Part shown: piece after piece, positions 24,032 through 57,226 of the stretch
How positions within the stretch are numbered: the first letter of the stretch is position 1
Layout: every line of letters starts with the position of its first letter
Source of the DNA: a virus
Lineage: Duplodnaviria; Heunggongvirae; Uroviricota; Caudoviricetes
DNA: 64,000 bases
Strand: one strand, 5' to 3'
Virus record (IMG/VR): IMGVR_UViG_3300012983_000032
Location: 29,793 to 93,792 of that record
The notes under the pieces: generated by a model
What the model saw: only the letters and a program-made list of their open reading frames with translations
What the model was told of the DNA's origin: nothing
Databases searched by the model: none
Made by a program: the position numbers and the translations under genes

Positions 24032-25324
24032 TCACAAAGACTTTTTAATCTTTACTGCCATACCATGAATTGCTGACAACTTTTCTGAAGCATAGTCACA
24101 ATTTTTAACTTTAAAGCTAACTCCGATATTGCTATCCTTATCGTAGTTCATAGTACGAACTACAACACCTTCGTGCTGCAAGAAGTCTTTCCAAAGTTCA
24201 CCTTTTGGGACTTCTTCCTTATAACAAATAATATTATCGTCCTTTTCAGGAGTCCAATATACTTTTTCTGCATAAGAAACAGCAGTGTTGATATCAGGCA
24301 TAATTGAACCAAGTTTTACGTCCTTTTCAAGGATAGGAACGAATCTCAATCCAAACATTTCTGATACTTTGATAGCCTCTTCCAAAGGAAGTTGCTTACC
24401 AGTTTTGTAGTCTTTTACAGTAAATACATACCAATAGTTTTTGGTAAAGTCATAGATATTATCCTGAATACCTGGACCTACCTGTTCACCCTGGAAAACA
24501 TAAACTTTGCCAATATCTTTGTAAACTCGTTTATACTTATTTACAATATCATACTGCCTCATCATTTCCCAGAATAATGACTTGTCTTCAAGAGTATATG
24601 CGTTGTTACGAGAACAAACATATGCACCTTTAAGTTTTTTACCTTTGAAGTCAGGTACTACTGTAAATGACTGACCCTCCATTTTTACAGATGTATAAAC
24701 TTCGGAGTCTTTAAATCTTTCAAGAACGTACTTCATATTTTGAACACAAGTTTCATCAGATTTTGACACAATCTGTGATGGAAATCCACCCGCAGAGTTT
24801 TGGTGTTTTCTCTGCCAAATACGTCCAATCCAACGTGTTAAGAAGTGACCCAAACAGAACTTTACCCATTTAGGATAACTCTTTTTTGAATCTCCTCTTG
24901 TAGGAGAAGCGTCTTCAACAGGTTCATACTTGCGAATATTCAACAAGTCTGTGATATCATCACCTGCTTTCAACTTACTCAATACATTCTTATCAATCGG
25001 CAATTCTTCAAGAGAAACTGCCAATCCCCAAGATTTAACTCTTTCACCTTTTTCACCATTATAGTCTTTTGCACCCATTGTCATAGGATGGATAATAAAA
25101 CCCTTTTCTTTTTCACTATAACAACGTTTACGCAAAAACTCCCAAGCCTCTACCTCAGGTAAAATTGAACCTTCCTGAATAAATGCTAAGGTATCTCCAA
25201 CTTTAACAGTGCTAGGGACAATAGCCTCAAACCCATTTTGCACAAATCGCACAGCAACGATGCGGTCTTTTTCAAACATTTTTTGAACTGAATCTACAGT
25301 TACAATACTTGCTAAGTCTCTCAT
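24032..25324 (-). CDS. ATP-dependent RNA ligase, Rnl2-like nucleotidyltransferase, with an N-terminal extra domain
   Basis: Motif I VKMEGQS, motif III YVFQGEQVG, motif IV HEGVVVRT, motif V SFKVKN. Confidence 0.55.
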   Translation of the reverse strand: MRDLASIVTVDSVQKMFEKDRIVAVRFVQNGFEAIVPSTVKVGDTLAFIQEGSILPEVEAWEFLRKRCYSEKEKGFIIHPMTMGAKDYNGEKGERVKSWGLAVSLEELPIDKNVLSKLKAGDDITDLLNIRKYEPVEDASPTRGDSKKSYPKWVKFCLGHFLTRWIGRIWQRKHQNSAGGFPSQIVSKSDETCVQNMKYVLERFKDSEVYTSVKMEGQSFTVVPDFKGKKLKGAYVCSRNNAYTLEDKSLFWEMMRQYDIVNKYKRVYKDIGKVYVFQGEQVGPGIQDNIYDFTKNYWYVFTVKDYKTGKQLPLEEAIKVSEMFGLRFVPILEKDVKLGSIMPDINTAVSYAEKVYWTPEKDDNIICYKEEVPKGELWKDFLQHEGVVVRTMNYDKDSNIGVSFKVKNCDYASEKLSAIHGMAVKIKKSL

Positions 25325-25403
25325 ATTTGAGACCTCCTTAATGATTTAAAAATTGCCCGCCACCACTTGCATTTGTAATAGATGCAAGAAACTATGTATA
25401 TAC

Positions 25404-25412
25404 TATATTAAC
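25404..25412 (-). promoter_or_regulatory. CGTTAATATA promoter, 79 nt before RNA-ligase ATG 25324. The UTR contains a 7-bp hairpin (cttgcat...atgcaag) and RBS AAGGAGG.
   Basis: motif. Confidence 0.45.
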
Positions 25413-25418
25413 GCAAAT

Positions 25419-25703
25419 TCACACAATCACACAAGGAACGTATGCAACTGAACGACGATATGTTAGTACTTCTGTTAAATTAAAATGACCAATCATCCAC
25501 TCAGCATCTTTCTCAGAAATTGTGCAGCTAAAGTTTCTTTTTGCTTTTGGTGTGTACTGAAGAAGTTGATAAGATACATTATCCTCATAGTCATATGACT
25601 TCAATATTCTACACATAATTGTAAAAGCCTTTTCCATTTTTGGTCTATCAACTTCACATACCCCAGCAGATGGAAAAGTTTTAAATGCTTCTTTTAATTT
25701 CAT
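25419..25703 (-). CDS. Hypothetical protein
   Basis: ORF in an operon, overlapping the upstream gene by 4 nt. Confidence 0.3.
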   Translation of the reverse strand: MKLKEAFKTFPSAGVCEVDRPKMEKAFTIMCRILKSYDYEDNVSYQLLQYTPKAKRNFSCTISEKDAEWMIGHFNLTEVLTYRRSVAYVPCVIV

Positions 25704-26479
25704 TTTTGACCCCTTGAATAAAATATTTTATCTTTTTCTGTTTCAGGTATTATAGTTACATATTCATTTGCACATATTTTCGGCATAACGCCCCTTACAA
25801 GTTTTAACATACTCTCAGGTCTATCAATGCTTTGGTACTTTTCATATTTCTTGTCTGAAAAATATGGTTCCTCTATGGACGGTACTGGTTCATCAAACTC
25901 ACGTATCAATTCCGTCTTAACAGACTCAATAGATTTTTTTGTTTTCTTTGAAAGACGAAAGTTCATTTCTCCGTCACTAATACCATTAGTAGAGTCTTTA
26001 TATGCAACTTGACGAACTCTGTCAAATGCAATTTCTTTTGCATAATTAAAGTCACCCTTATCTTTAGGATGTTTCTTTACGTATGCAATTCTTATATCTG
26101 GTAGATGTTTAAGAGTCCCTTTAGACAAAATTATTACTGCCATACATATTTCATTCTGATTATTTTTAATTCTAAAAAACTTACAATTTTCAGGAGAAGT
26201 ATATTTTTCTTCAACTTCTCTCCACGTCATTAAAAATGAATTAGGTCTACTGCGAGAAATATACTGTTCAAGTTTTTCCTGATAAGTCTTTTTGTTAATT
26301 TCATACTGTTTATTATATTTTTCCCTATACTCTTTGTAAAGAGGGTCGTCAGATATACTAGACATATAGTCTTGTTGATTACCGATAAATTGGTCTAACG
26401 TTTTATCTATTTTTTCATTTGAAAGTTTTTCTAATAATTCATCTTTAATCATAAAGTCCCTTTTACTCGTTTGTAACAT
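25700..26479 (-). CDS. Hypothetical protein
   Basis: ORF; its start overlaps the thymidine kinase stop. Confidence 0.3.
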   Translation of the reverse strand: MLQTSKRDFMIKDELLEKLSNEKIDKTLDQFIGNQQDYMSSISDDPLYKEYREKYNKQYEINKKTYQEKLEQYISRSRPNSFLMTWREVEEKYTSPENCKFFRIKNNQNEICMAVIILSKGTLKHLPDIRIAYVKKHPKDKGDFNYAKEIAFDRVRQVAYKDSTNGISDGEMNFRLSKKTKKSIESVKTELIREFDEPVPSIEEPYFSDKKYEKYQSIDRPESMLKLVRGVMPKICANEYVTIIPETEKDKIFYSRGQK

Positions 26480-27021
26480 TTTTTACAAACACACTCATAC
26501 TTATCAGTATCACCTACAACAATAGTTTCAGTTTTCTTCCCTCTGAACATAGAGTAATTTCCTAAATCACTTCCACAACGCATACAAATTCCCAAGAGTT
26601 TGATAATATCATCACAATAAGGTAACAAACTTATTGCCTCTGGAAATAATGTATTTTCAGAAGTAGATAATAATCCTGCAAAATACACATCTTGGTTAGT
26701 TACAACCTCATTTGCCATTTTAGCAAGTAATGAAACATTTTTTATCATAAAATATTCGTCAACAAAAATTCTATCAAAATTATCCAAAATAGACATTGCA
26801 TTTTCTTCGGTAATTTCCTCTACCTCAAATAAACTAATCTTACCCTCTTTTATAAACTTCTCCAAAAGTTCATTTCCTGCGGAGTGTGTAAAATAGTCTC
26901 TTGTATCTTTTTTAGGTCTAACAAGTGCAATTCTTTTTTTACCATAAACTGCACGTTCCATTTTCTGCAATAAAGTGGTACTTTTCCCACCATACATTGG
27001 CCCTACGATAAGTGTATTCAT
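26449..27021 (-). CDS. tdk: Thymidine kinase, TK1 family
   Basis: P-loop GPMYGGKST, FVDEYFM, and a C-terminal zinc ribbon CMRCGS...CKKCY. Confidence 0.8.
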   Translation of the reverse strand: MNTLIVGPMYGGKSTTLLQKMERAVYGKKRIALVRPKKDTRDYFTHSAGNELLEKFIKEGKISLFEVEEITEENAMSILDNFDRIFVDEYFMIKNVSLLAKMANEVVTNQDVYFAGLLSTSENTLFPEAISLLPYCDDIIKLLGICMRCGSDLGNYSMFRGKKTETIVVGDTDKYECVCKKCYKRVKGTL

Positions 27022-27040
27022 TGTTTCTACACTGACTTGT

Positions 27041-27262
27041 TTAATCAGTGCCTTCTCCTTTCAAAAATAAAATTAACTCTACTGTAATAAATATAAAGCC
27101 TACAATACCAGCTAAAATAAAGAATATTCCTACAAATATAGGAAATGTAACTTTTACTGGGAAGTTTATGGCTAAATAAACTCCTGCCACCCCTAAAAAT
27201 ACACATAAGAGAAAATATAAATAATGTAATATAAAATAAATTGAACGTTTCATATTTTCCAC
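27041..27262 (-). CDS. Small hydrophobic membrane protein
   Basis: 73 aa with two TM helices. Confidence 0.25.
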   Translation of the reverse strand: MENMKRSIYFILHYLYFLLCVFLGVAGVYLAINFPVKVTFPIFVGIFFILAGIVGFIFITVELILFLKGEGTD

Positions 27263-27270
27263 CCAAACAA

Positions 27271-28158
27271 TTATTTACTTTGTCCTTCTCTAGACAACAT
27301 ATCTCGATACTCTTTAATTTTTCTCTTCTGCAGTCTCTCACTTTCCAACATAGTTAAAAACTCTACTGGCGGTTTTTCTGTATCAAAGATGGTATAGTAA
27401 TCATGACTAGGGGAGTCTATAACAATAAGTTTATCATTATGTTTTGACTTTAAGTACAATGGTGGGTAGTAGGATTCTGTATGTCCTACTATCTGTTGAG
27501 GAAAGTGCATATCATTTAATAATGCTGTCGGGCGTATCCATATAGGACTAGCACGTTTAGTGTCACCACTGCCATAGAAGTCGTCAGCACCAATATTATG
27601 TTCAAAAATGTCTAAATCTGCTCGACGTTCTTCTGAGGTAAAAGCATTTTGAAAGATTTTATTTACTCTTTCTGTTACACACATACTAATCCACTCTTCC
27701 TGTTCCATATCATAACGTTTCTTCTCAAACTCACCAAAAATATCACTGTTAATACCGTGCTTTGTACACCAAGTGGAAGAAAATCCTGCATGGCTAAATA
27801 CCCAGCCGTCAAGTTCTACTGCAATTTTGAAAAGGTCAATATTATCCATAAATACCTTTTGGTAGTCAACACGATATTTTGGATTATATCCAGAGTATTT
27901 TGCACCAACAATATATTGATAGTCATGATTACCTAAGAGAATTTCAAATTTTGTAGGTTCTTCTCTTGCCATAGAACAAACTTCTTTAATCCCACTAATC
28001 ATAGGAAGACCGTGTTTAAATATATCAAAGTCGTCTACATAGTCCCCTAATAAAACTACTTTATCTACCTCGTCTTTATGAGATTTTATATATTCTATAG
28101 TATTAATCCAATTACCATGTACGTCAGGGATAATTAAAATTTTCATAACTCTAACCAA
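27271..28158 (-). CDS. Calcineurin-like metallophosphoesterase (lambda-PPase or Pnkp-phosphatase-like)
   Basis: IIPDVHG, LLGDYVDD, LGNHDY metallophosphatase motifs. Confidence 0.7.
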   Translation of the reverse strand: MVRVMKILIIPDVHGNWINTIEYIKSHKDEVDKVVLLGDYVDDFDIFKHGLPMISGIKEVCSMAREEPTKFEILLGNHDYQYIVGAKYSGYNPKYRVDYQKVFMDNIDLFKIAVELDGWVFSHAGFSSTWCTKHGINSDIFGEFEKKRYDMEQEEWISMCVTERVNKIFQNAFTSEERRADLDIFEHNIGADDFYGSGDTKRASPIWIRPTALLNDMHFPQQIVGHTESYYPPLYLKSKHNDKLIVIDSPSHDYYTIFDTEKPPVEFLTMLESERLQKRKIKEYRDMLSREGQSK

Positions 28159-28484
28159 CCACCTTCACCCATATTCGCAGTCTTATAATACCAAGTACCG
28201 TCCATATAGATAAATATAAAAGCAATATCTTCATTTTGAGAATAACGTGCATCAAAGTTTTCTATCCCTTTTTCAGAAATAAGTTTATATACACTCTTCT
28301 CTGGAGAGATTGTCAAATAATCTCTATTTCCAAGAGAGGCTACCCACTTTGCATCTTCAGGTGAAATATAATTATTTTTAAGGAAGTCTCCTACACCGTC
28401 TGTGATATATCCGTCGTGTCTAACTACTGACGCAACGATATTATCTTTTTTATCCATATAAGCAACAATACACTGTGTACTCAT
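28143..28484 (-). CDS. Hypothetical protein
   Basis: ORF in an operon. Confidence 0.3.
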   Translation of the reverse strand: MSTQCIVAYMDKKDNIVASVVRHDGYITDGVGDFLKNNYISPEDAKWVASLGNRDYLTISPEKSVYKLISEKGIENFDARYSQNEDIAFIFIYMDGTWYYKTANMGEGGWLEL

Positions 28485-28500
28485 ATTCTACTCCTGGGAA

Positions 28501-28752
28501 TTATAATTTATCTTTTTCCGCTACTATTTCAACTAAAATATTATTTACTTCTTCATAAAATGTTCTACTTACTACATTATAGTAATCAGAACCACCCATA
28601 TCATCGTCTTCATTTAAAATTGCAATTGTGTCTCCTATACGAACATTTTCCAATATAGGTGTACATACACTTCTACATCTGCTACCATCTTTATCTTCCT
28701 CTGTTTTAAGATAAAGCCTATAGTCATATTTCATTGTTTTTATAACCTCCAA
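28501..28752 (-). CDS. Hypothetical small protein
   Basis: The track start is TTG. The internal ATG (MKYDY...) with a GAGG RBS is more likely. Promoter box at 28769-28778. Confidence 0.3.
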   Translation of the reverse strand: MEVIKTMKYDYRLYLKTEEDKDGSRCRSVCTPILENVRIGDTIAILNEDDDMGGSDYYNVVSRTFYEEVNNILVEIVAEKDKL

Positions 28753-28768
28753 AATTTGTTATATATAA

Positions 28769-28778
28769 TATATTAACA
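28769..28778 (-). promoter_or_regulatory. TTGTTAATATA promoter after terminator 28787-28820
   Basis: motif. Confidence 0.5.
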
Positions 28779-28821
28779 ACAAAAAAGGTCAGAAACCTAA
28801 GTCTCTGACCTAAAATATACT
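28779..28821 (-). terminator. Rho-independent terminator after the primase gene
   Basis: ggtcagagacttaggtttctgacc then TTTTTTGTTG on the minus strand. Confidence 0.65.
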
Positions 28822-28824
28822 TAA

Positions 28825-29889
28825 CTATTTTAAATTTTTTAAATCTACTCTAACAAACTTAATACCAAACTTTTTTTCAATTTTCTTTGTAAACTTTTCA
28901 TCAGATTTTTTATTAATAATTTCATCAGAATCTTCCTTGATGTCTTCATTAAAATCCTCTTTATTTACAATAACAGGATAACTGTCATACTGACGACAAC
29001 CTGGGGTTGGAATCATTGGGGCTTTTACTCTCCAAGGGTGTTCTTTATCTTGTTTATTACGACGAGGAGGATTAATAACAAACTCTTCATAAGGGAGATT
29101 ATTATCTTTCAATGAAATTTTCAATTTATTATATACATCTGACCGTTCTTCATCAGTAAGTGCCTTAGTAACATTTGTAATAAAATCATTTGGATTAAAC
29201 TTTAAGCACTCTTTTCTTACAAGAGTGTGAAACCCACCTGAAGTTTTAAGAATTGCAAAGTTACCTTTACCAAAAAGTTTAAGACCCTCTTCGTGAATAA
29301 CGTTCTGAATAATATCCAAGTTTTCAGGTGTACGAATATCTTTTTTTACGTCCATATCGAAGTCAATCCAAATACGTCTTGGACAGTTATGTGCGTGACA
29401 AGACTTTAAATGTTCTCCAATCTTTGGCATTTTAACAAGACTGTCATAAATACCATCACGAGAATTTTTTCTTGCAGCATTTGTCATATCCCTACGGCAA
29501 TTATTATACTCATTGATAAGGTCTTCAATACAATTCATCTCGTCAGAAGGATTCAATACTGAATATACTGTCATTGCATGTTCAGGATAAGGTACGTGAT
29601 TTGAAGTAAGCAAAGAGTTCTTATCACAATTATAACGATAGAACGCTTGCTTGTAAATATCAAAGTTCCATTCCTGTTTAAGCCCACCTTTTGTACGGAT
29701 AAGCTCTTCTCTCATCATTTCACCACGAGCACCAACTTTTGTGTATTCGCGTTCTTCATCTGTTAATTTCTTGCCACGACAAGCTAAACAAACCATATAA
29801 CTTTCCTGTGGTTCTGGCTTTTCAATAATGTGGTCAAAAAACCATTTCAATTCGTCTTCATTTAAGACCATATTGTAATATTCCGACAT
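28825..29889 (-). CDS. Archaeo-eukaryotic primase (AEP/PrimPol)-like protein
   Basis: RIWIDFDMD (motif I DxD), SGGFH (motif II), and a zinc-knuckle-like CHAHNC. Confidence 0.5.
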   Translation of the reverse strand: MSEYYNMVLNEDELKWFFDHIIEKPEPQESYMVCLACRGKKLTDEEREYTKVGARGEMMREELIRTKGGLKQEWNFDIYKQAFYRYNCDKNSLLTSNHVPYPEHAMTVYSVLNPSDEMNCIEDLINEYNNCRRDMTNAARKNSRDGIYDSLVKMPKIGEHLKSCHAHNCPRRIWIDFDMDVKKDIRTPENLDIIQNVIHEEGLKLFGKGNFAILKTSGGFHTLVRKECLKFNPNDFITNVTKALTDEERSDVYNKLKISLKDNNLPYEEFVINPPRRNKQDKEHPWRVKAPMIPTPGCRQYDSYPVIVNKEDFNEDIKEDSDEIINKKSDEKFTKKIEKKFGIKFVRVDLKNLK

Positions 29890-29910
29890 ATTTTCCTCCT
29901 AAGAAAATAG

Positions 29911-30045
29911 ATATTATTCTACACCCTCTTGGGTGTTTGTATACTTAATATAATGTATTGTGTCCTCGTCGTGATTTTCTTTTGCAAGTTCTGTAAAAAT
30001 TTTATCACGAATACATACAGGATTTGACCTCGGAAATAAAGGCAT
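29911..30045 (-). CDS. Possible 44-aa ORF upstream of the primase. Not in the ORF track.
   Basis: ATG preceded by a GGGGGT RBS. Sequence MPLFPRSNPVCIRDK...QEGVE. Coordinates approximate. Confidence 0.2.
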
Positions 30046-35135: not shown

Positions 35136-37325
35136 ATGGCAATTCAATTTGGTGGAATTACTACCACCACAAAAGCAAAAAGTTTAGCAATTGCTAAAGA
35201 AGACAGAGTTGACGACTATATTCTTTATAACCATTTTAACCCAGAAGAAGACTATTATATTTTCCTCCTAGAGGGTATGCCAAAAAATAGGGCATTAGTT
35301 GATAAGGTAAGAGCTAAAATTGACGAACATGGTTATCAGTCTTATATTATTGCGTCTGCAACTACAAAAGTCTTCGTAAAAGATGATATTAAACAGTTAA
35401 CAGAACATATGAGTACATTTAGGTCAAAATGGACTAATATTATTACATATCAAGGTGTTCACTGTTCTGCAATTATGGCTTTTGGTGCTGCCTTGTATGG
35501 TATTAACCGTAGTGCCGATATTATGGTTAGTGACTTTTATGATATGTGGATGAATAATCCATATTACTACCTTGGTCACGGATTTATTGGGGATTTTGAC
35601 ACATTTATTTACCCAGTCGATAGTGTTGACCAACTTTATCCGTCTGAGGATAATAGACATAGACCTTTTAAACCCGACGAATCAACTACAAACTGGAAAA
35701 CAAGATTCTTTTTTGCACAATTGAAAAATATGCAAATTGGACGTAAATATCCAGAAGATATGACTGACTTTGAGATTGTTGTATGTAAAACATTGGAAGA
35801 GGCAGATTCCACATTAACTAAACTTATGAACTCAAAGTTATTGGCTTGGGATACTGAAACAAACTCATTAAAATGGTTTAGGAAGAATTCACACATTCAC
35901 TGTTTTACATTCTGTAATGACGGTAAAATTGGATATTATATTCCAGCAAAATTAATTTTTGAAAATCGTGGACTACGTAGAAAATTATGTAGTGTAATGT
36001 ACACTTGTGAAAATATGGTTGGTGCCAATATCAAGTTTGATATTCATTTTATTAAACATGATATGCCTGAATTTGATATCAAAAGAATTAAACATATTGA
36101 CGACGTTGGACAGTTAAGTCATGCTATTAATTCAAACCGTACAAAAGGTTTGAAACCTATGACTTTCTTCTATACACCATTTGGCGGATATGAAAACGAA
36201 TTGGACGTATTTAAAAAACAGACAAAAACTGATAATTACTCACTTATTCCAATAAATATCCTTAGTAAATATGCAACTATTGATGCTATTGTTACATTCA
36301 GAATTTACTTGGCACTTAGAAATCACATAGCTTTAGTTGATAAAAAATTCCCTAATGAAAAGCCACTTAAAGACTGGACTATGGAAAGATGGTATGACCA
36401 AGTAATGGCACCTGTTTATCCAGACTTTATCGGTATGGAAGAAGTAGGTATGAGAATGGACGTAGACTATCTGCAGTCTGTTAGAAAACTTTTACTCTAC
36501 CGTATTCCAATTGTTAGAGATAAACTTTGTAATTTATGGAAAGTACCAAAAGACTTCAAGTTCAATTCACCCGATAAGTTAGGTATGCAAATTGAAAAAA
36601 TGGGTTGGCCAAAGGTTGCAGAAAGTAAGAAAGGTCTTTATGCTACTTCTGATGAGTGTATTCAAGAGTGGAAACGTCTTAATATGCCAGGGATTAATGA
36701 CCTTATTGAACTTAGAGAATTATATTCTTTCTTAGGTACTTTTATTGGTCTTGAGTCAGAAACTGGTAACCCTGACGACGCAACAGGTTGGCAACAGTTC
36801 CTTGTCTTCCACCCAGAAGACAACAGTTGGAGAGTTCATCCAAACTATGGTGTAATGGCAACAGAAACTATGCGTTGTATTGGTACAGAACCTAACTTGC
36901 AAAATATCCCTGCACACTCTAAACTTTCAGACGAAGTTAAGAGATGTATAACGGTTCCAACTTCAATTCAGTACACTATTGCAGACGAAAGTGGTAATGT
37001 ATATGTAGGTGGTCATTTGGATACTATCGAGGTTGAGGGCAGAGGTAGAATTTCTTTGGCAGACGTTAGAGAAAATGATAATATAATACCGAATACTTTT
37101 GAAAAGTACAAGTTCAAATATGCAGAAATATTTGAAAAAGATGATGACGAAAATTCTAAAAAAGGTTCTTGGGAAAGTCAGAGAGCAAAGATTTATGGAC
37201 TAAAATCTATAAATGACGCAGTAGTTTCAAAAGATAAATCATTCCTTGACGATTTTAATGGTAATGAGAGTTCAGAAGAAAATGAACCAAAGAAGTTTGG
37301 TTTTGGATTCGGTATTGGAGCGTAA
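35136..37325 (+). CDS. Family-A DNA polymerase, N-terminal portion. It covers the 3'-5' exonuclease domain and the start of the polymerase domain, then stops after the NLQNIP region.
   Basis: ExoI LLAWDTETNSL, ExoII ANIKFDIHF, ExoIII KYATIDAIV. The polymerase fingers motif TEPNLQNIP is present. Motif A is atypical (IADESG) and motifs B and C are absent. A low-complexity tail precedes the stop. Confidence 0.7.
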   Translation: MAIQFGGITTTTKAKSLAIAKEDRVDDYILYNHFNPEEDYYIFLLEGMPKNRALVDKVRAKIDEHGYQSYIIASATTKVFVKDDIKQLTEHMSTFRSKWTNIITYQGVHCSAIMAFGAALYGINRSADIMVSDFYDMWMNNPYYYLGHGFIGDFDTFIYPVDSVDQLYPSEDNRHRPFKPDESTTNWKTRFFFAQLKNMQIGRKYPEDMTDFEIVVCKTLEEADSTLTKLMNSKLLAWDTETNSLKWFRKNSHIHCFTFCNDGKIGYYIPAKLIFENRGLRRKLCSVMYTCENMVGANIKFDIHFIKHDMPEFDIKRIKHIDDVGQLSHAINSNRTKGLKPMTFFYTPFGGYENELDVFKKQTKTDNYSLIPINILSKYATIDAIVTFRIYLALRNHIALVDKKFPNEKPLKDWTMERWYDQVMAPVYPDFIGMEEVGMRMDVDYLQSVRKLLLYRIPIVRDKLCNLWKVPKDFKFNSPDKLGMQIEKMGWPKVAESKKGLYATSDECIQEWKRLNMPGINDLIELRELYSFLGTFIGLESETGNPDDATGWQQFLVFHPEDNSWRVHPNYGVMATETMRCIGTEPNLQNIPAHSKLSDEVKRCITVPTSIQYTIADESGNVYVGGHLDTIEVEGRGRISLADVRENDNIIPNTFEKYKFKYAEIFEKDDDENSKKGSWESQRAKIYGLKSINDAVVSKDKSFLDDFNGNESSEENEPKKFGFGFGIGA

Positions 37326-49710: not shown

Positions 49711-49745
49711 CCCACACCAAAAGGTGTGGGTTTTTTATTTTTTTT
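49711..49745 (+). terminator. Rho-independent terminator
   Basis: cccacaccaaaaggtgtggg then TTTTTTATTTTTTTT. Confidence 0.8.
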
Positions 49746-49851: not shown

Positions 49852-50223
49852 ATGTTTCCTACTGACTTTGACTTGAGGGGGTTAAGTTCACCTATTAAGG
49901 TAACTCCTCGTGAAAAAGATTGGGTTGCTGCACCAGACCATTATGCACAATTAAAAGAAAAACTTGGGGGTAAGGAGTGTTGGGACGTATATACACTTCT
50001 TTTGAGACATAAACCAAGAATCCCAGGATTTCTTGCAACATTTTGGCAAAACTGTTTCAAGTACCTTTGGCGTCTTGGAGACAAACCAGGTGACTACGGT
50101 AAAACTGACGAAGAAAAGATGTGTGAAGACATGTGTAAAGTAATGGAATATGCTGCAAAATTTATTATTGAGGCTGGTGGTAAAATTCCTGACTTCTCAC
50201 ATATTCAATACACAGGAGAATAA
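49852..50223 (+). CDS. Hypothetical protein
   Basis: RBS TTGGAGG. 97-nt 5' UTR containing a hairpin. Confidence 0.35.
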   Translation: MFPTDFDLRGLSSPIKVTPREKDWVAAPDHYAQLKEKLGGKECWDVYTLLLRHKPRIPGFLATFWQNCFKYLWRLGDKPGDYGKTDEEKMCEDMCKVMEYAAKFIIEAGGKIPDFSHIQYTGE

Positions 50224-50224
50224 T

Positions 50225-51532
50225 ATGGGGAAACATCCTTTTTTACCATTATATAACTTTATAAAAAAACATCCATTTACTTGGAAAAAGAAACTCAAGG
50301 AAAATCCATATTGTATTACAATTAAGAGTCCAAATTATAACAAAGATTGGTATATGTTCTCATATAGTCAGTTCGACTCGGACTTTTATAATGACGTAGT
50401 AAAATGCTGTCGTGGGACAGTTTTGGAAGTTAAAGGAAAACTTTTCAAACGTATCAAACCAATTTGTTTACCATTCAAAAAGTTTGGTAATTACGGTGAA
50501 GGGTATTGTGACCCTATTGACATAGAAAGTGCTACTATTCGTGATAAAGTTGACGGCATTCTTGTAAAGTGTTCTGTAATTGACGGAAAAACATATTGGT
50601 TTACAAATAACGGTTTTGACTGGACTATGAAGTTTGGTACAGATTTTTCTTTTGATGACGGTGAAGAAGCAACTAAACTTGCTGAAAACTTTGGTGATTT
50701 ATTAGAATATGCGTTATACCGTAAACTGGATATCCCAAGATTTACAGTTGTCGGTAAGTATAAAGATATTACCAAATCACTTAACCGTATTTACAATATG
50801 GAAAATTCTTGGTTATCTAAAATCCCAAATAACTATACTCTTGGCTTTGAGTTAGTTTCACCTAGAAATAGAATCATTTGCAAATATCCTGAAACAAAAA
50901 TTGTTTTATTGTTTGCAAGAGATAATATTACAGGTCAGGAATTTACACCAGAAGAAATGGTATCCCAATATGGTATCCCATATGAAACACCAAAATTATA
51001 TGACTGTAAAACACTTAAAGACACTCAGGAAATGTTAAAGTCTTTCAAAGGTCTTGAACAAGAAGGTGTAGTAGTTTGTGATAAATATTTTCATCGTGTA
51101 AAAATGAAGTGTGAGTCATACTTACAGTTAAAGTATGCTGTAGATAATGACAAACCTAAAATAATCTTTAAGGCAGTTGTAGAAGAGTCCACTGACGACT
51201 TACTTACTGCATTTCCTACTTTAAAAGACTCTGTAGATAAAATGACAGAAGATATAAAAAACTTTAAGGAATCCTACAAAAAGTTCTACGAGTTTTTGCA
51301 GCTTAAAGGTGTTGAGGACAAAAAGATATTTGCATTATATGTAAATGCAAATATAAATGACCCTTTAAAAAAGTTGGCTTTTAATGCAAGCAGTCAAACC
51401 GCAGAACAAATTGTGGATAAGTTCATTACGGAATGTGCAATGAAAAGTTCTAAGGGGTATAGAGAATATTTTAATGTTAAAGCATTATTAGATAATGGAG
51501 AATATTTACATAATAGAACAATAAAAAACTAA
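50225..51532 (+). CDS. ATP-dependent RNA ligase, Rnl1/Rnl2-like nucleotidyltransferase
   Basis: Motif I IRDKVDGILVK (KxDG), motif IV EQEGVVVCDK, motif V RVKMK. The ATG at 50225 has RBS AGGAG; the track start at 50150 is rejected. Confidence 0.55.
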   Translation: MGKHPFLPLYNFIKKHPFTWKKKLKENPYCITIKSPNYNKDWYMFSYSQFDSDFYNDVVKCCRGTVLEVKGKLFKRIKPICLPFKKFGNYGEGYCDPIDIESATIRDKVDGILVKCSVIDGKTYWFTNNGFDWTMKFGTDFSFDDGEEATKLAENFGDLLEYALYRKLDIPRFTVVGKYKDITKSLNRIYNMENSWLSKIPNNYTLGFELVSPRNRIICKYPETKIVLLFARDNITGQEFTPEEMVSQYGIPYETPKLYDCKTLKDTQEMLKSFKGLEQEGVVVCDKYFHRVKMKCESYLQLKYAVDNDKPKIIFKAVVEESTDDLLTAFPTLKDSVDKMTEDIKNFKESYKKFYEFLQLKGVEDKKIFALYVNANINDPLKKLAFNASSQTAEQIVDKFITECAMKSSKGYREYFNVKALLDNGEYLHNRTIKN

Positions 51533-51541
51533 TTGTATATT

Positions 51542-51823
51542 ATGATAAATGTTACACAATCTATCTCTGCCCTCTCTCAGATAGAGGGTTTATGCAATGT
51601 TTACGAAGTATTTAATGGTTTACATTCTGAGAGTTTTGTATTGAACTATAAAAACCTTAAATGTAATATTACTATAAAAAATAATGACATTATTACTTTT
51701 ACTATAATTGGAAATAATTGCAGTTTTAAAAGGAGCTGGTCATTGTTAAAACAAGAGAACGAAGAGGCATTTATAAATGACCTAAAGTTCTTCTTTGAAG
51801 ATACAGAAAGAAAAATCGCCTAA
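51542..51823 (+). CDS. Hypothetical protein
   Basis: ORF with a terminator downstream. Confidence 0.3.
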   Translation: MINVTQSISALSQIEGLCNVYEVFNGLHSESFVLNYKNLKCNITIKNNDIITFTIIGNNCSFKRSWSLLKQENEEAFINDLKFFFEDTERKIA

Positions 51824-51831
51824 ATCTAAAA

Positions 51832-51866
51832 CCTAGGAACTTATAGTCCTAGGTTTTTATTTTTAA
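51832..51866 (+). terminator. Rho-independent terminator
   Basis: cctaggaacttatagtcctagg then TTTTTATTTTT. Confidence 0.75.
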
Positions 51867-51893
51867 AAATAATCCTAAAAATTTTAATTCTCT

Positions 51894-51902
51894 GTTAATA
51901 TA
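51894..51902 (+). promoter_or_regulatory. CTGTTAATATA promoter, 32 nt before ATG 51934, after terminator 51832-51866
   Basis: motif. Confidence 0.5.
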
Positions 51903-51933
51903 ACTTTATATATCATATTAAGGAGAATATTAA

Positions 51934-52461
51934 ATGAAAAAACTAATTTTTATTTTTGCACTTATCTTTGGGCTTAATATTGTAATGGGGTGTGATGCAA
52001 ATTATGAACAATCTGCCTCAGTAAAAACTGCAGAAACAGCAAATAATGCTATGGAGTCAGCAATTGCTGCTACACCTATTCCTACCGTTACACATTTCTT
52101 GGAAAGAAAAACTATTGCCAAATGGGTAGAAACTTGGGACCAACCTAGTTTACCTTGTTATGTATATCTTTATTCATACGGTGTATGTATTGGATATTAC
52201 GTTTCTAATGGAAAACCTGCAAGTACTCAGTCTTATTTAATCCCAGAAGAATCATATCAGAGAGTAAGAAGTGCAGAGGGGTATTCAAGTACATTAATGA
52301 CACAAGCACCTGATTTAGACGGAACATACGGTACAAATAATCCTGGAATTCGTTTCTTTACTGCGTCAGGTGTAGCAGTTGAATGGGCAGGTGCAGGTGC
52401 AACATATCTTTATAGTAATGCACCTATTAAGACACTGAATGTACCTTTGCTAGGAGACTAA
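51934..52461 (+). CDS. Putative lipoprotein
   Basis: Signal peptide plus lipobox NIVMGC. Confidence 0.4.
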   Translation: MKKLIFIFALIFGLNIVMGCDANYEQSASVKTAETANNAMESAIAATPIPTVTHFLERKTIAKWVETWDQPSLPCYVYLYSYGVCIGYYVSNGKPASTQSYLIPEESYQRVRSAEGYSSTLMTQAPDLDGTYGTNNPGIRFFTASGVAVEWAGAGATYLYSNAPIKTLNVPLLGD

Positions 52462-52463
52462 AA

Positions 52464-53000
52464 ATGAGCCTTTTCAAAAAAATTTTTGATTTACCCCCAG
52501 AAGATGTAGAAGCCTTCATTATAAATCGAGTAAAGAATATGTGGGGAGAGTATGACGGTAGATATGATGACTACGATATAGAAATTAAATGGCTAGTACC
52601 CTGTAATGAGTTCTATGTACATCTTGAGCCTAAACTTCAGACAAAAGATTGGCAAGTTTATTCTTTTAAGAATAATAAAAATCTGTCTCTTAAAGACTAT
52701 TTTGACGAGACCTTTAAACATTGGCATTTTACCTTCCAAGAAATATATGGTCTTATGACAGGTGAGACAGTATTTATTGGGTATCTTAGTTGTGATGGGA
52801 TAGAAGACTTTGGAATGATGGAATATAATTTCATTTATGAAAAGGAATATATTACTGTTAAATACCATAAACCTACAGAGGCTTGGGTTATAGTAGATTG
52901 GGATGAAGAGAAAGAACGTTTTGCATTAGGGGACTTGCCGTCTAAATTGGTAAAGTTCATTAAGGAAGAAAAAGTTTTCGACTTAGATAAAGAGGGATAA
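52464..53000 (+). CDS. Hypothetical protein
   Basis: RBS AGGAGAC. Confidence 0.3.
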   Translation: MSLFKKIFDLPPEDVEAFIINRVKNMWGEYDGRYDDYDIEIKWLVPCNEFYVHLEPKLQTKDWQVYSFKNNKNLSLKDYFDETFKHWHFTFQEIYGLMTGETVFIGYLSCDGIEDFGMMEYNFIYEKEYITVKYHKPTEAWVIVDWDEEKERFALGDLPSKLVKFIKEEKVFDLDKEG

Positions 53001-53131
53001 ATGAGAATTAAATGGAAAAACTTTTGGATTTGGTTTATTGACCAAGTTAAAAGAAAACGTGCCTTTTATATATTGGCTAAAAAATGATAGTATAGTCATT
53101 AATGACTTCAAAAAACGATGGGAGATATAAA

Positions 53132-53287
53132 ATGGAACAATACCTATATTCTATTTTAGACGAATATGGCAACGTTACTGCAAAAGATATGACATTAGAC
53201 GTAGCAATGGTCTTATTAAGAGCCTTGTTTATGGAATATTTTAACGAGCCAACAATTGGGTATCAAATGGTAAGACAGGAAAAATGA
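53132..53287 (+). CDS. Hypothetical small protein
   Basis: ATG with RBS GGGAGA. Confidence 0.25.
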   Translation: MEQYLYSILDEYGNVTAKDMTLDVAMVLLRALFMEYFNEPTIGYQMVRQEK

Positions 53288-53308
53288 AAAAAGACTGAGG
53301 TAAAAAAT

Positions 53309-53650
53309 ATGACAGAAGAAAAAATAAAGGAACTTGAAGACTGTATTCCTAAAAAACATAAGCGAGTAGATTTTAGTAAAGAAAAGGGAGTCTTATATGA
53401 TTACCTTATAAATATTAAGGGTAAGTATGGGTTTGACATATCTGATAACAATTTTAATAATTGTTGTTGGGGTTCTAACTATGACACAGATAGATTATTA
53501 TTTAAGATACTTCATAGAATAAATTGTGAAGACGTTGATGTTTGTTATAATTACTACTCTGATATTTCAGACGTAGACTGGTTCAAAATTGTTTTGAAAA
53601 TACCTATTGAAGAATTAAGAAAAAGAAAGACTAAAAATGGTGAAGATTGA
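53309..53650 (+). CDS. Hypothetical protein
   Basis: RBS GAGG. Confidence 0.3.
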   Translation: MTEEKIKELEDCIPKKHKRVDFSKEKGVLYDYLINIKGKYGFDISDNNFNNCCWGSNYDTDRLLFKILHRINCEDVDVCYNYYSDISDVDWFKIVLKIPIEELRKRKTKNGED

Positions 53651-54065
53651 AATTTTATGTAATGTTTGTCAAAAAATTTTTAGAAAATCTAAAATATGCA
53701 AACCAAATAATATTGAACAAAGTTACTATAACTTAAAAGACACTACAATTAAAAATGATTGGGTATACGAAGAAAGTGAAGATAGTTACTATTGTCCAGA
53801 ATGTGCAGAATTTAGAAATCTCTATAAAGGTAAACGTGCATCCATGAATAAAGAAAATAATCCAGACTGGCATTATACGGAGTCAGGGGACTTGCCACCA
53901 ATAGTTAGAAATGGAATAACTGATACTGTAATAGACCAAAATGGGCAAGAAGTATTCTATAGCCAAAACTGTGGATGGTTAAAAGATGATGAGATGGTAG
54001 TAGTTAAAGTCTATAAATGGAAATATAAATGTATGGTAAATTATGTTGGAAATAGGAGGAAATAA
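53637..54065 (+). CDS. Zinc-ribbon protein
   Basis: CNVCQK ... CPECAEF. Confidence 0.3.
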   Translation: MVKIEILCNVCQKIFRKSKICKPNNIEQSYYNLKDTTIKNDWVYEESEDSYYCPECAEFRNLYKGKRASMNKENNPDWHYTESGDLPPIVRNGITDTVIDQNGQEVFYSQNCGWLKDDEMVVVKVYKWKYKCMVNYVGNRRK

Positions 54066-54067
54066 AT

Positions 54068-54847
54068 ATGTTTGCAGATAATCTTGGTGACAGAATGAAA
54101 ATGCACTATGAAAATCTTACAAAGACTAAACTTATTCAGGAAGTACCAGTAATTATAAGACTTGACGGTAAAGCATTTCATACCTTTACACGTAAATTTG
54201 AAAAGCCTTTTGACAGTATTCTTGTAAAGACAATGCAGGAAACTACAAAATACTTGTGTGAAAATATTCAGAACTGTATCTTTGGGTATACTCAATCTGA
54301 CGAAATTTCTTTGGTCTTGACTAAACCTCTTATTAGTTCGGAAGTTTGGTTTGACTATGAAGTACAGAAACTTTGCAGTGTTTCTGCGTCTATGGCTACT
54401 TTGGCATTTATGCAGAACTTTAAAAAGAATATTAACGAAAGATACGTTGTAGACCCTCTTTCAGATGTTTACCGTACTGCATTAGATAAAGGGGCAATGT
54501 TTGACGCAAGATGTTTTAATATCCCAGAGTGTGAAGTTGTAAACTGTATTTATTGGAGACAGATTGACGCAAAACGTAATTCGGTACAAATGTTGGCAAG
54601 GTCTCTTTACTCTCATAAAGAGCTTGACAAAAAGAATACTGCTATGTTACTCGAAATGTGTAATCAAAAAGGTAAAGATTGGGAGAAACTTTCTAATCAC
54701 CTTAAATGGGGTTCTGCAGTAAAATACAACCTAGAAACTCATAAAGTTGAAATTGATGAAAATATGCCACTTCTTAAAGGAGAAGACAGAAAGTATCTTG
54801 AAGACTTTATTGTAATGAACCAAGACCCTTCACCACATTTCCACTAA
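54068..54847 (+). CDS. Thg1-like protein (tRNA-His guanylyltransferase family, 3'-5' nucleotidyl addition)
   Basis: VIIRLDGKAFHTFTRKF (RxDGxxFHxF) and FGYTQSDEISLVL (SDE catalytic motif). 259 aa, typical TLP size. Confidence 0.7.
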   Translation: MFADNLGDRMKMHYENLTKTKLIQEVPVIIRLDGKAFHTFTRKFEKPFDSILVKTMQETTKYLCENIQNCIFGYTQSDEISLVLTKPLISSEVWFDYEVQKLCSVSASMATLAFMQNFKKNINERYVVDPLSDVYRTALDKGAMFDARCFNIPECEVVNCIYWRQIDAKRNSVQMLARSLYSHKELDKKNTAMLLEMCNQKGKDWEKLSNHLKWGSAVKYNLETHKVEIDENMPLLKGEDRKYLEDFIVMNQDPSPHFH

Positions 54848-54867
54848 TTTTTTAAGGAGATATTAGT

Positions 54868-55086
54868 ATGGCAAAGAAAACTGCAAAAGAAGTTGTTTCC
54901 GAAGTTACACAAAAGATTAACGAGTCTGCAAAGGAAACAAAAGCAGAAAACGGTGAGGAACTTTCTAAAGAAAGTAAAGAAGCCGCAACTGCAACTAAAA
55001 ACTTCTTCAAAGAAGTTGGAGAATGGTTTGTAGCACTTTTCAAATATATTGGAAAGTTCTTCAAAAAACTTTTCACTAAAAAGTAA
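54868..55086 (+). CDS. Small Lys-rich protein with a C-terminal amphipathic helix
   Basis: WFVALFKYIGKFFKKLFTKK. RBS AAGGAGA. Confidence 0.3.
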   Translation: MAKKTAKEVVSEVTQKINESAKETKAENGEELSKESKEAATATKNFFKEVGEWFVALFKYIGKFFKKLFTKK

Positions 55087-55134
55087 TTATATGGCAGTCT
55101 AAAAAGACTGCCAAAATTATTGGAGGTATTCTAA

Positions 55135-55647
55135 ATGAAATTTATATTTAGTGTAGGATGTTCTGGAAGTGGAAAATCTACATATTATTATAAAAACCTT
55201 AAAGACACATTTGAAATTGTAGAACCTGACTTAATCCGAAAAGAAATGGGTGATATCAATGACCAATCAAGAAATGGTGAAGTATATATGACTGCACACA
55301 AACGTCTTGACAAATATCTTAGTGAGGGTAAAAACGTTTATTTTTCAGCAACAAATCTTAACATTAAATCAATTAAAGATATAGGAGACATTGCAAAAAA
55401 ATATACAGACGATATTACTTGTATACAATTTAATGACTCATATGTATGGGAACTCTGTCAAGATAGAGTTAAAAAAGACCTGAGTAATGGAGTAGATAGG
55501 TCAAATACTGATGTTATGAAAGAACTTCCAACAGGTGAAAAAATACCTCTTGTTAAAGAGATGTCTGATAGATTTACCAAATTGGTTAACAGCCAAGAGT
55601 TTTCCGACCTTATTGAAGAGCAGGGTATTAAATTAATGGAGGTATAA
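55135..55647 (+). CDS. Polynucleotide 5'-kinase, T4 Pnk kinase-domain-like, with no phosphatase domain
   Basis: VGCSGSGKST P-loop, EPDLIRKEM, SATNLN; compare T4 Pnk GCPGSGKST and SDTNLN. Confidence 0.65.
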   Translation: MKFIFSVGCSGSGKSTYYYKNLKDTFEIVEPDLIRKEMGDINDQSRNGEVYMTAHKRLDKYLSEGKNVYFSATNLNIKSIKDIGDIAKKYTDDITCIQFNDSYVWELCQDRVKKDLSNGVDRSNTDVMKELPTGEKIPLVKEMSDRFTKLVNSQEFSDLIEEQGIKLMEV

Positions 55648-55649
55648 AA

Positions 55650-56102
55650 ATGAAGTCTGTTTTTAAGAATATTATAATTTTCTGCATAGGATTTACAATA
55701 TACCAAAGTATTGAGGGTATATTCAAAATGGTTGTACCTAATATGGGTGCAGAAAGTTTTTTAATGGGAATAATTGGTGGTTTAGCACTTCTTCTTATAG
55801 GAGGGATAAATAATAAACTTTCCTGGAATATGCCTATTTGGTTACAGTCTATTATTGGTGGAGTATGTATATTAGGAACAGAATTTATAATGGGTCTTAT
55901 CCTTAATAAATGGCTCTGTCCTTTACTTAATAAACCTTTAATTTGGGACTACTCAAACTTTCCTGGGAATATTATGGGGCAAATATGTCCTCAATTCTTT
56001 ATAGCTTGGATACTATTAGGTGCCACCTGTATTGTAATTGACGACTATTTAAGATACTTTTTATTTAACGAAGAAAAACCACATTATTGCTGGAAATTCT
56101 AA
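55650..56102 (+). CDS. Integral membrane protein, about four TM helices
   Basis: Hydrophobic segments IIIFCIGFTIY, LMGIIGGLALLLIGGI, IIGGVCILGTEFIMGLIL, ILLGATCIVI. Confidence 0.4.
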   Translation: MKSVFKNIIIFCIGFTIYQSIEGIFKMVVPNMGAESFLMGIIGGLALLLIGGINNKLSWNMPIWLQSIIGGVCILGTEFIMGLILNKWLCPLLNKPLIWDYSNFPGNIMGQICPQFFIAWILLGATCIVIDDYLRYFLFNEEKPHYCWKF

Positions 56103-56117
56103 AAATCTTATTTTTAC

Positions 56118-56126
56118 GTTAATATA
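56118..56126 (+). promoter_or_regulatory. ACGTTAATATA promoter, 39 nt before the C5-MTase ATG
   Basis: motif. Confidence 0.5.
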
Positions 56127-56164
56127 TTAAATACATTATAAATTATTTGATAGGTGATAGAATT

Positions 56165-57226
56165 ATGTCTATAACATTTAATCCTGAAAAATATCATATT
56201 ACTAAACCAGTAAGGCTTATTGAATTGTTTGCTGGTATTGGAAGTCAATCTAAGGCATTAGATAAACTTGGAGTAAATTACGTTCCGTGGAAAGTTTGTG
56301 AGTTCGACAAATATGCAGTTGCCTCTTATAATGCAGTGCACGGCACAAATTTTGAAACTTCTGACGTTTCTAAAATTACAGGTGCAGACCTAGAAATTGT
56401 AGACACTGATAAGTATGAATATATTATGACATACTCGTTTCCTTGCGTAGACCTTTCCTTGGCTGGTAAAAGAGCAGGTATGGATAAAAACAGTGGCACT
56501 CGTTCTTCCCTTCTTTGGCAAGTAGGGCGTCTTTTGACAGAAACCAAAGAACTTCCACAGGTACTTGTTATGGAAAATGTTCCACAGGTTCATAGTGCAT
56601 CTAATATGAGTGCATTTCAAGATTGGTGCAAGTTTTTGCAGGATAAAGGATATTCTTCTTATTACAAAGACCTCAATGCAGTGGACTACGGTATTCCTCA
56701 GAGACGTATGAGATGTATTATGGTTTCTATCCTTGGGGATTATATATACAAGTTTCCTAAACCTTTAGAAAAATCTGTAAAACTCGATGACTTCCTTGAT
56801 AAGATTCCTGACCCTAAGTTCTACATTGATAATAAAAAATCTAAAGAGCTTATCAATAATATTCTTGCAGATAAAATTAAATTACATAATGGTGCAAATG
56901 GTGTTATTGTAAAAGGGATGAGTGGTGAAAAATATCGTGCAGAATGTAAACCTACTGATATCTCAAGTACACTTTGTGCAAGAGATTGGAAAGGTTTCAA
57001 TAACTACGGTCAAACAGGTATTGTTGAAATGAACGGTGACACCCCAACTGCCGATAACCTGAAAATTCGTAGGCTCTCTACTGTTGAGTCTTGGAAACTT
57101 ATGGGCTTTACTGAGGAAGACCTTAGAAAAGCAGAAAAAGTAAACAGTAACACTCAATTACTAAAACAAGCTGGAAACTCAATTGTAGTTGACGTTTTAG
57201 TTAATGTATTCAAAGAATTATTTTAA
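56165..57226 (+). CDS. DNA (cytosine-5) methyltransferase
   Basis: Motif I LFAGIGS, motif IV SFPCVDLSLAG, motif VI ENV. The ATG at 56165 has RBS AGGTGA; the track TTG start at 56147 is less likely. Confidence 0.85.
   Translation: MSITFNPEKYHITKPVRLIELFAGIGSQSKALDKLGVNYVPWKVCEFDKYAVASYNAVHGTNFETSDVSKITGADLEIVDTDKYEYIMTYSFPCVDLSLAGKRAGMDKNSGTRSSLLWQVGRLLTETKELPQVLVMENVPQVHSASNMSAFQDWCKFLQDKGYSSYYKDLNAVDYGIPQRRMRCIMVSILGDYIYKFPKPLEKSVKLDDFLDKIPDPKFYIDNKKSKELINNILADKIKLHNGANGVIVKGMSGEKYRAECKPTDISSTLCARDWKGFNNYGQTGIVEMNGDTPTADNLKIRRLSTVESWKLMGFTEEDLRKAEKVNSNTQLLKQAGNSIVVDVLVNVFKELF

Follow-up and report, generated by a model that had tools for sequence, protein, structure and literature searches.

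A 64,000-nt stretch of phage DNA (hereafter the window; positions 29,793 to 93,792 of IMG/VR record IMGVR_UViG_3300012983_000032, Caudoviricetes) was found to encode five proteins of RNA end-repair families: an Rnl5-type and a T4 Rnl1-type RNA ligase, a stand-alone polynucleotide kinase, a binuclear metallophosphoesterase and a Thg1-like protein (TLP). A first-pass annotation had named these five open reading frames (ORFs) and their families, and they were recovered at the coordinates it gave in Pfam and PHROG searches with profile E-values ranging from 5.5e-9 to 6e-78, far outside what chance would produce. The motifs it had quoted for both ligases and the TLP were present, and all catalytic residues amenable to checking were conserved.

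Families and catalytic residues of the five proteins

The first ligase (window 24032-25324, minus strand, 430 aa) consists of an N-terminal OB-like domain, matched by the PHA02142 OB domain at residues 4-83, and a C-terminal nucleotidyltransferase domain, matched by Pfam RNA_ligase (PF09414, E = 6.6e-15) at residues 208-407; the protein also matched phrog_968 (E = 8.5e-36). Among solved structures it was closest to the Naegleria gruberi RNA ligase (5cot/6vt4, E = 2.6e-11); the alignment covers both domains and pairs motif I of the phage protein, KMEG, with KLDG of NgrRnl. The motifs KMEG (residues 214-217, K214), EGVVV (residues 385-389, E385-G386) and KVK (residues 405-407, K405/K407) were located. 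An OB domain followed by a nucleotidyltransferase domain with no appended C-terminal domain is the Rnl5 layout, and the protein is classed here as an Rnl5-type ATP-dependent RNA ligase that is predicted to seal 3'-OH/5'-PO4 nicks in duplex RNA.

The second ligase (50225-51532, plus strand, 435 aa) matched RNA_lig_T4_1 (PF09511, E = 5.5e-9) with 36.6 bits, which passes the cut-off of 28.3, and phrog_562 (E = 4e-39). When the protein was aligned with T4 Rnl1 (2c5u, E = 8.3e-13), the CRG, KxDG, EGxV and KxK motifs were in register. The last three were KVDG at residues 108-111 (K108), EGVVV at 280-284 (E280-G281) and KMK at 293-295 (K293/K295), and we take the T4 Rnl1 motif residues to be K99, E227/G228 and K240/K242, respectively. 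The longest ORF begins at 50150; the 435-aa protein corresponds to the start at 50225 that is used in metagenome gene calls. The Rnl1 match list was dominated by T4-like phages. The protein is a divergent member of the Rnl1 family. Neither ligase matched a DNA-ligase family, in agreement with their initial description as RNA ligases.

The Thg1-family protein (54068-54847, plus strand, 259 aa) matched Thg1 (PF04446, E = 2.9e-33) and phrog_4717, 'tRNA-His guanylyltransferase' (E = 6.2e-78). Alignment with the Bacillus thuringiensis TLP (4kgk) extended over residues 4-253 with approximately 45% identity and an E-value of 2.8e-41, compared to E-values of 2e-8 or weaker for structures of true Thg1. 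A HINNLYN-type motif is a mark of eukaryotic bona fide Thg1; at the position of HINNL in the Candida Thg1, KRNSV was found in the window protein and SKNSI in the B. thuringiensis TLP. No match to Pfam Thg1C was obtained at E ≤ 0.01. The D/D/E triad of the catalytic core aligned as expected: the active-site carboxylates D33, D78 and E79, which lie in the motifs RLDG (31-34) and SDE (77-79), align with D30, D75 and E76 of the B. thuringiensis TLP and with D29, D76 and E77 of the human enzyme, respectively. Moreover, residues K46, R31 and E15 align with K43, R28 and E12 of the B. thuringiensis TLP, which take part in 5'-activation and nucleoside triphosphate binding (PMC3701042). The protein is classified on these alignments as a bacterial-type TLP and not a true Thg1, with a predicted templated 3'-5' nucleotidyltransferase activity. 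TLPs repair 5'-truncated tRNAs in vitro (PMC3701042).

The kinase (55135-55647, plus strand, 170 aa) matched AAA_33 (E = 5.7e-10) and the polynucleotide kinase family phrog_505 (E = 1.7e-12), and its closest solved relative was the kinase domain of Clostridium thermocellum Pnkp (4jst/4gp7, E = 1.2e-10). The P-loop residues K14/S15, the acceptor-site motif D32-x-x-R35, T73 and the lid arginines R111/R122 were invariant in 26 relatives. They correspond to K21, S22, D38, R41, T80 and the lid arginines of CthPnk, of which K21, S22, D38 and R41 are essential and T80 and the lid arginines contribute to activity (PMC3902929). The protein is thus a predicted 5'-OH polynucleotide kinase. Its earlier description as a stand-alone polynucleotide kinase was upheld; the label 'T4-Pnk-like' was not, the protein being nearer to bacterial Pnkp (4jst/4gp7, TIGR04075).

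The metallophosphoesterase (27271-28158, minus strand) matched Metallophos (PF00149, E = 2e-11). Because its relatives are 291 aa long, translation probably starts at an ATG four codons downstream, with the gene at approximately 27271-28146. The complete motif set DxH, GDxxD, GNH[DE], H and GH was present, and D12-V-H14, G38-D39-x-x-D42, G76-N77-H78-D79, H123 and G225-H226 were invariant in 49 relatives. No PDB match was obtained by sequence. A predicted structure (predicted local distance difference test score 93.4) places the protein in the PPP / ApaH / lambda-phosphatase clade, to which the Pnkp phosphatase also belongs, and the Pnkp phosphatase domain was the third-best structural match of the model. 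Judged by this model, the protein is a candidate for healing 2',3'-cyclic-phosphate or 3'-phosphate ends, the weakest assignment of the five. The first-pass annotation overstated its repair role, for which the evidence consists of the fold class and two related loci elsewhere.

Three smaller features accompany the Rnl1 and TLP genes. The conserved gene orf123 (49852-50223, plus strand) abuts Rnl1, its stop lying 1 nt before the Rnl1 start. It was the best-conserved gene of its block, with 87-97% identity in relatives of the window lineage compared to 57-92% for Rnl1. No Pfam or NCBIfam match was found for it; it matched only the C-terminal part of 'nucleotide kinase' PHROGs 236, 1689 and 4897 (E = 7e-8 for 236 and 1689), which we take to be T7 gp1.7-like. 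It may be a partner of the ligase, and its membership of a repair system is uncertain. Two terminator-like hairpins on the plus strand, both identified by consensus match only, bracket the three-gene unit orf123-Rnl1-orf96: one upstream of the unit at 49711-49730 (8-bp stem with 6 GC pairs, T-run) and one after orf96 at 51828-51857 (11-bp stem, T-run). The TLP gene, orf72 and the kinase gene follow in the next co-directional run. In the window lineage, orf72 (54868-55086, plus strand) is always located 3' of the TLP gene and encodes a small Lys/Glu-rich protein with a hydrophobic C-terminal helix. In two relatives, L096 and L097, it occupied the same place with 70-100% identity (L-numbered loci are stretches of phage contigs, several from IMG/VR, around relatives of the window TLP, kinase and phosphoesterase). 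No orf72 relative was found near other TLPs, and it matched no family.

Linkage of the repair genes in other phages

Relatives with as little as 54% kinase identity (L096) retained the block orf123-Rnl1-orf96-orf175-TLP-orf72-kinase, with both flanks different, and the block phosphoesterase-thymidine kinase-orf259-Rnl5 was kept in those relatives too, including the L096 contig. Outside the lineage, kinase relatives with 28-46% identity adjoined genes of phosphoesterase and ligase families. In L180, an Rnl5-type ligase 31% identical to that of the window (E = 2e-47) was followed by two ORFs and a kinase; L182 carried a kinase, an Rnl5-type ligase and a Metallophos_2 protein, and L098 a kinase and an HD protein. 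In L245/L247, a window-type phosphoesterase (profile hidden Markov model (HMM) E = 1.2e-48), a kinase and an Rnl5-type ligase were encoded within 7.5 kb, so that the phosphoesterase is linked to kinase and ligase genes there as it is within the window lineage.

Clusters that included a TLP were also found. L212 encoded a kinase, an Rnl1, one ORF and a TLP within 5.8 kb, and L262 an Rnl1 (fragment), a kinase-HD fusion and a TLP. A TLP, an Rnl5-type ligase and a kinase were present in L055, and in L007 the TLP was followed directly by an Rnl1. Between L212 and L262, and between either of them and the window, protein identity was only 26-40%, and with this degree of divergence the Rnl1-TLP-kinase trio is not simple shared synteny. 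These findings show that tight clusters of the same families recur in very divergent phages, which supports a functional link among the repair families.

When two genes on either side of the kinase were examined in 42 dereplicated loci, the commonest Pfam families were AAA_33 paralogues, phosphoesterases (Metallophos, Metallophos_2 and HD) and RNA ligase; RlaP and a CCA-adding-type nucleotidyltransferase were also among the neighbours. Around the TLP, profile HMMs detected a heal-and-seal relative within 10 kb in only 10 of 34 sampled phage lineages. An earlier scan of 80 TLP loci by BLAST only had yielded 1 kinase, 1 Rnl1 and 2 Rnl5 neighbours, and the use of profile HMMs raised the linkage. 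A kinase near a TLP appeared to be enriched approximately threefold, a rough estimate in which the background rate comes without a matched control and not a computed statistic. The linkage between TLP and repair genes is facultative.

The first-pass annotation had also held that Thg1-family enzymes fall outside the standard tRNA-repair pathways of phages. This was overstated. TLP genes annotated as tRNA-His guanylyltransferase occur in at least 164 GenBank phage records, phage TLPs form phrog_4717, and section 3.4.9 of Iyer et al. 2021 (Viruses 13:63; PMC7824862) counts Thg1, with a sporadic distribution, among the nucleotidyltransferases of jumbo-phage RNA repair, as one that restores the 5' ends of tRNAs. 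A TLP gene had been flagged in a Bacillus phage paper in 2013. In the TLP match list, none of the ten commonest organisms was a T4-like phage. Among the direct neighbours of TLP genes (L006-L085) were a single Tad4 gene, a single Tad2-like gene and two T7 gp5.9-like RecBCD inhibitors, which suggests that TLPs are often located in accessory or counter-defence regions.

Other arrangements were observed near kinase and TLP relatives. A 293-aa protein of L262 (5995-6876) is the fusion mentioned above, with an N-terminal Pnk-type kinase and a C-terminal HD-like region in which the HD motifs were recognized by eye; it could be a compact end-healing enzyme. Approximately 2 kb upstream of the TLP, L017, L019 and L023 encode a protein of 730 aa whose N-terminal part is a Pnk kinase (e.g., L017 5869-8061), possibly a kinase-ligase fusion (compare phrog_8238), and the L030 group encodes 304-aa proteins with the size of a full T4-type Pnkp (e.g., L030 7617-8531). 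Giant ORFs of approximately 2,300-3,500 aa with an embedded Pnk-type kinase domain were present in L207, L219, L220, L225, L248, L250 and L258 (IMG/VR) and may be polyvalent proteins of phages. In L096, whose phage sequence is approximately 120 kb, a eukaryotic-type topoisomerase IB (1-1272; Topoisom_I_N, Topoisom_I, Topo_C_assoc) lies just upstream of the repair block. In approximately 11 dereplicated loci (L185, L189, L191, L195, L196, L199, L200, L201, L215, L218 and L234), the kinase relative was flanked by a 372-aa ORF upstream and a ~183-aa ORF downstream. These two ORFs were set aside: they showed no significant PDB match, no ligase motifs and no recurrent family, and their position probably reflects lineage synteny.

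Possible roles of the repair genes

Taken together, the five proteins may form a complete ATP-dependent RNA heal-and-seal set of the bacterial-Pnkp type, divided among separate proteins and joined by a 3'-5' polymerase, that mends cut tRNAs either as an anti-defence measure or for the maintenance of translation. In our analysis this reading has about an even chance of being correct. The steps below are drawn from the biochemistry of the families. A host or rival ribonuclease would cut a tRNA and leave 2',3'-cyclic-phosphate and 5'-OH ends. The metallophosphoesterase would take off the 2',3'-cyclic or 3' phosphate, which is the weakest step, and the Pnkp-type kinase, with its fully conserved catalytic residues, would phosphorylate the 5'-OH. 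Breaks in loops would then be closed by the Rnl1-type ligase and nicks in duplex stems by the Rnl5-type ligase. Where a 5' strand has lost nucleotides and its 3' partner is intact, for example in the acceptor stem, the TLP would rebuild the missing part: it would activate the 5'-monophosphate with ATP or GTP and then add templated nucleotides in the 3'-5' direction. The kinase, whose gene lies 290 bp downstream, would make the 5'-monophosphate that the TLP requires. Nicking of tRNA acceptor-stem duplexes by a retron has been described (PMC12916289), and such nicks are a plausible substrate for the nick-sealing ligase.

A number of observations weigh against this reading. The scores in curated families were low: the Rnl5-type ligase matched NCBIfam TIGR02306 (RNA_lig_DRB0094, E = 4.6e-14) with 52 bits compared to an equivalog cut-off of 151, the Rnl1-type ligase matched the T4 RnlA family TIGR02308 (E = 9.7e-19) with 67.7 bits compared to a cut-off of 242, and the kinase matched TIGR04075 (bacter_Pnkp, positions 11-136, E = 3e-8) far below the equivalog cut-off. 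The fold of the phosphoesterase is equally compatible with protein phosphatase or Np4N hydrolase activity, the clade does not fix the substrate, and a relative with 43% identity (L088) has no ligase nearby. The repair genes are located in two blocks approximately 27 kb apart on opposite strands, and the terminator-like hairpins separate Rnl1 from the TLP-kinase run. The block phosphoesterase-thymidine kinase-orf259-Rnl5 sits inside a wider syntenic stretch, and conservation of the blocks may in part be plain inherited synteny. In 24 of the 34 TLP lineages, no kinase, ligase or phosphoesterase relative was found within 10 kb; no Pfam family recurred beside the TLP when two genes on either side were compared in 33 lineages; and in three GenBank phages that were inspected, the TLP gene stood amid small hypothetical genes. 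No tRNA gene and no Rfam family was detected in the window, and neither a target nor a toxin can be named. Finally, the papers that the literature searches found include no description of a defence that trims or truncates tRNA 5' ends, and the substrate of the TLP stays hypothetical for that reason. The earlier proposal of a broader tRNA healing system was sustained in part: the five genes are credible as a heal-and-seal kit and the comparative clusters tie its parts together, and the 24 lineages with no repair gene near the TLP speak against it.

The strongest alternative, which we regard as possible but rather unlikely, is that the TLP serves the phage's own tRNAs, by adding G-1 to tRNA-His or by tidying or editing 5' ends, and that the other four genes form a separate kit for the repair of anticodon breaks. 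A passage in Iyer et al. 2021 (PMC7824862) states that megaphages usually carry many tRNA genes, tRNA arrays were found within 10 kb of the TLP in 10 of the 80 TLP loci, the first phage paper to note a TLP tied it to phage tRNAs, and TLPs are known to perform 5' editing of mitochondrial tRNAs (PMC3701042). In L079, a tRNA-His(GUG) gene (17432-17507) is located 7 kb from the TLP gene and encodes U-1 and discriminator G73 compared to the usual G-1/C73; this prediction may be non-canonical or misfolded. In contrast, the tRNA-His near the TLP in L007 has both G-1 and C73 encoded and needs no addition. Nothing systematic emerged when missing G-1 and 5' acceptor-stem mismatches were looked for among the 47 tRNAs near TLPs: only two were tRNA-His genes, and a pair that was neither Watson-Crick nor GU occurred at positions 1-3 in only four, two of which were tRNA-Met and maybe initiators. 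Moreover, tRNA genes were absent not only from the window but also from 7 further loci of the window lineage and of kinase or phosphoesterase relatives, and the recurrent clusters of TLP, kinase and Rnl1 would be unexpected if the TLP served phage tRNAs.

It is unlikely that the five are unrelated accessory genes that merely share a large genome. That explanation would make the phosphoesterase a protein phosphatase, an Np4N/cap hydrolase or a signalling-nucleotide hydrolase, assign the Rnl1 to tail-fibre attachment in the manner of T4 gp63, and give the kinase DNA ends or nucleotides as its substrates. The recurrence of tight clusters of the same families in mutually very divergent phages argues against it, as does the kinase family itself, which keeps the acceptor-site D-x-x-R and the Thr that are specific to polynucleotide kinases. 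Routine processing of phage RNAs (tRNA halves, intron-containing or permuted RNAs, RNA-DNA junctions) in place of a response to attack would need no toxin and would suit Rnl5-type ligases, which seal duplex nicks with a 3'-OH RNA strand, and a homing-endonuclease-like gene is inserted beside the ligase in the relative L086, but this is very unlikely, as no intron, tRNA, other Rfam family or split RNA gene was found in the window.

A further possibility can be put forward, and it should be regarded as doubtful: the Rnl1, TLP and Pnk kinase may be a module dedicated to rebuilding tRNA 5' strands, present in at least three very divergent phage lineages (the window, L212 and L262) and directed against an undiscovered host nuclease that attacks 5' ends. 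In such a module the kinase would make the 5'-phosphate, the TLP would polymerise 3'-5' on the 3'-strand template, and the ligase would seal. Were this true, it would give the first biological role for bacterial-type TLPs and point to a tRNA-targeting defence of a new class. TLPs of bacteria and phages repair 5'-truncated tRNA in vitro, and no natural substrate of theirs is known. The position of the TLP, with an Rnl1-type ligase on one side and a Pnkp-type kinase on the other, and the occurrence of the trio in two more divergent contigs, provide concrete loci in which a 5'-end rebuilding branch of phage tRNA repair can be tested. Such a branch, should it exist, would imply that some host defence damages the 5' ends of tRNAs; otherwise the window adds one more case to the RNA-repair repertoire already described in jumbo phages. 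The locus is chiefly of value as a specific case in which to examine what TLPs do in bacteria and phages.

The source phage and comparison with known repair systems

The exact kinase sequence was found on a 425,174-bp phage contig, and contigs of close relatives were 437 and 442 kb; the source of the window is an uncultured megaphage of approximately 425 kb. A nucleotide search of GenBank phages with 8 kb of the window gave zero matches, the lineage being unrepresented there, and the best matches of the window repair proteins among GenBank phage proteins had 28-51% identity. No tRNA was found in the 10 kb beyond one end of the window.

The window also encodes DnaK, DnaJ, a flagellin, TnpB, two glycosyltransferases, a thymidine kinase, two DNA methyltransferases, helicases and a PolA fragment. 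The chaperone set (130-3854, minus strand) comprises a full-length DnaJ (130-1071), DnaK/Hsp70 (1159-3042, Pfam E = 1e-250) and a weak Hsp20-like ORF (3201-3854). The best genomic relatives of the DnaK were 57-64% identical and were spread over Spirochaetales, Geomonas and Gammaproteobacteria, which is not decisive for the host. The flagellin gene (13913-14773, minus strand) is complete (Flagellin_N, E = 2.5e-38; Flagellin_C, E = 4.8e-22). In the distant relative L088 (4135-5821), a flagellin gene is located beside a faint match to FlaA, the spirochaete filament sheath protein, and a GGDEF protein, a neighbourhood that hints at a spirochaete host. TnpB / IS605 OrfB with a Cas12f-like TNB domain is encoded at 12250-13614 (minus strand), and another TnpB adjoins the kinase-ligase cluster in L182. 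A family A DNA polymerase ORF (35136-37325, plus strand) has a 3'-5' exonuclease domain and only the first ~155 of 381 positions of the polymerase profile; the gene may represent a PolA that is split or has diverged strongly, and the arrangement recurs in the relative L086. A 610-aa protein with a SprT-like metalloprotease domain (57286-59118, minus strand, E = 3.6e-8) is encoded convergently to the repair block and was 87% conserved in L097.

The proposed set follows the same logic as T4 Pnkp and Rnl1 acting against the PrrC anticodon nuclease, in which ends are healed and then sealed by an Rnl1-family ligase. It differs from the T4 system in that the window has no HAD-type phosphatase domain, the kinase is not of the T4 subtype, and an Rnl5-type ligase and a TLP are present in addition. 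Compared to the Pnkp-Hen1 system, the kinase is nearest to the C. thermocellum Pnkp kinase domain, with the catalytic Lys, Ser, Asp and Arg kept, and C. thermocellum Pnkp also uses a binuclear metallophosphoesterase as its 3'-healing module, for which the window phosphoesterase is a candidate of the same fold class. In contrast, C. thermocellum Pnkp is one polypeptide of 850 aa, whereas the modules of the window phage are separate proteins encoded approximately 27 kb apart; the Hen1 methyltransferase was not found in the window, and the ligases are of the Rnl1 and Rnl5 types and not the C-terminal ligase domain of Pnkp. The Rnl5-type ligase shares with the Naegleria gruberi and Deinococcus radiodurans enzymes the order of an OB-like domain followed by a nucleotidyltransferase domain, both of which align, and exceeds them in length by approximately 90 aa, having insertions that lie between motif III and motif IV.

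The central idea of the first-pass annotation is already in print as a proposal for jumbo phages, as set out in section 3.4.9 of Iyer et al. 2021. The parts named in that section are the same: Rnl1/Rnl2-class ligases, often several per genome, a kinase, phosphoesterases and nucleotidyltransferases that restore nucleotides. The phosphoesterases it names are of the HAD and 2H types, whereas the window phage has a metallophosphoesterase. When nearly all window ORFs of at least 100 aa were scanned for RlaP, CCA-adding enzyme, RtcB, 2H, HD, Hen1 and Pth, none was found; of these, RlaP, the CCA-adding enzyme, RtcB and Pth belong to the repertoire of that section. To this the window contributes a new megaphage lineage, the Pnkp-like split arrangement with a metallophosphoesterase, and the conserved Rnl1-TLP-kinase block with counterparts in two divergent contigs. 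Compared to the B. thuringiensis TLP, the window TLP keeps all catalytic and activation residues, and its expected activity is templated 3'-5' repair of 5'-truncated tRNA; it differs in being phage-encoded and in being followed by the lineage-specific 72-aa ORF and a polynucleotide kinase.

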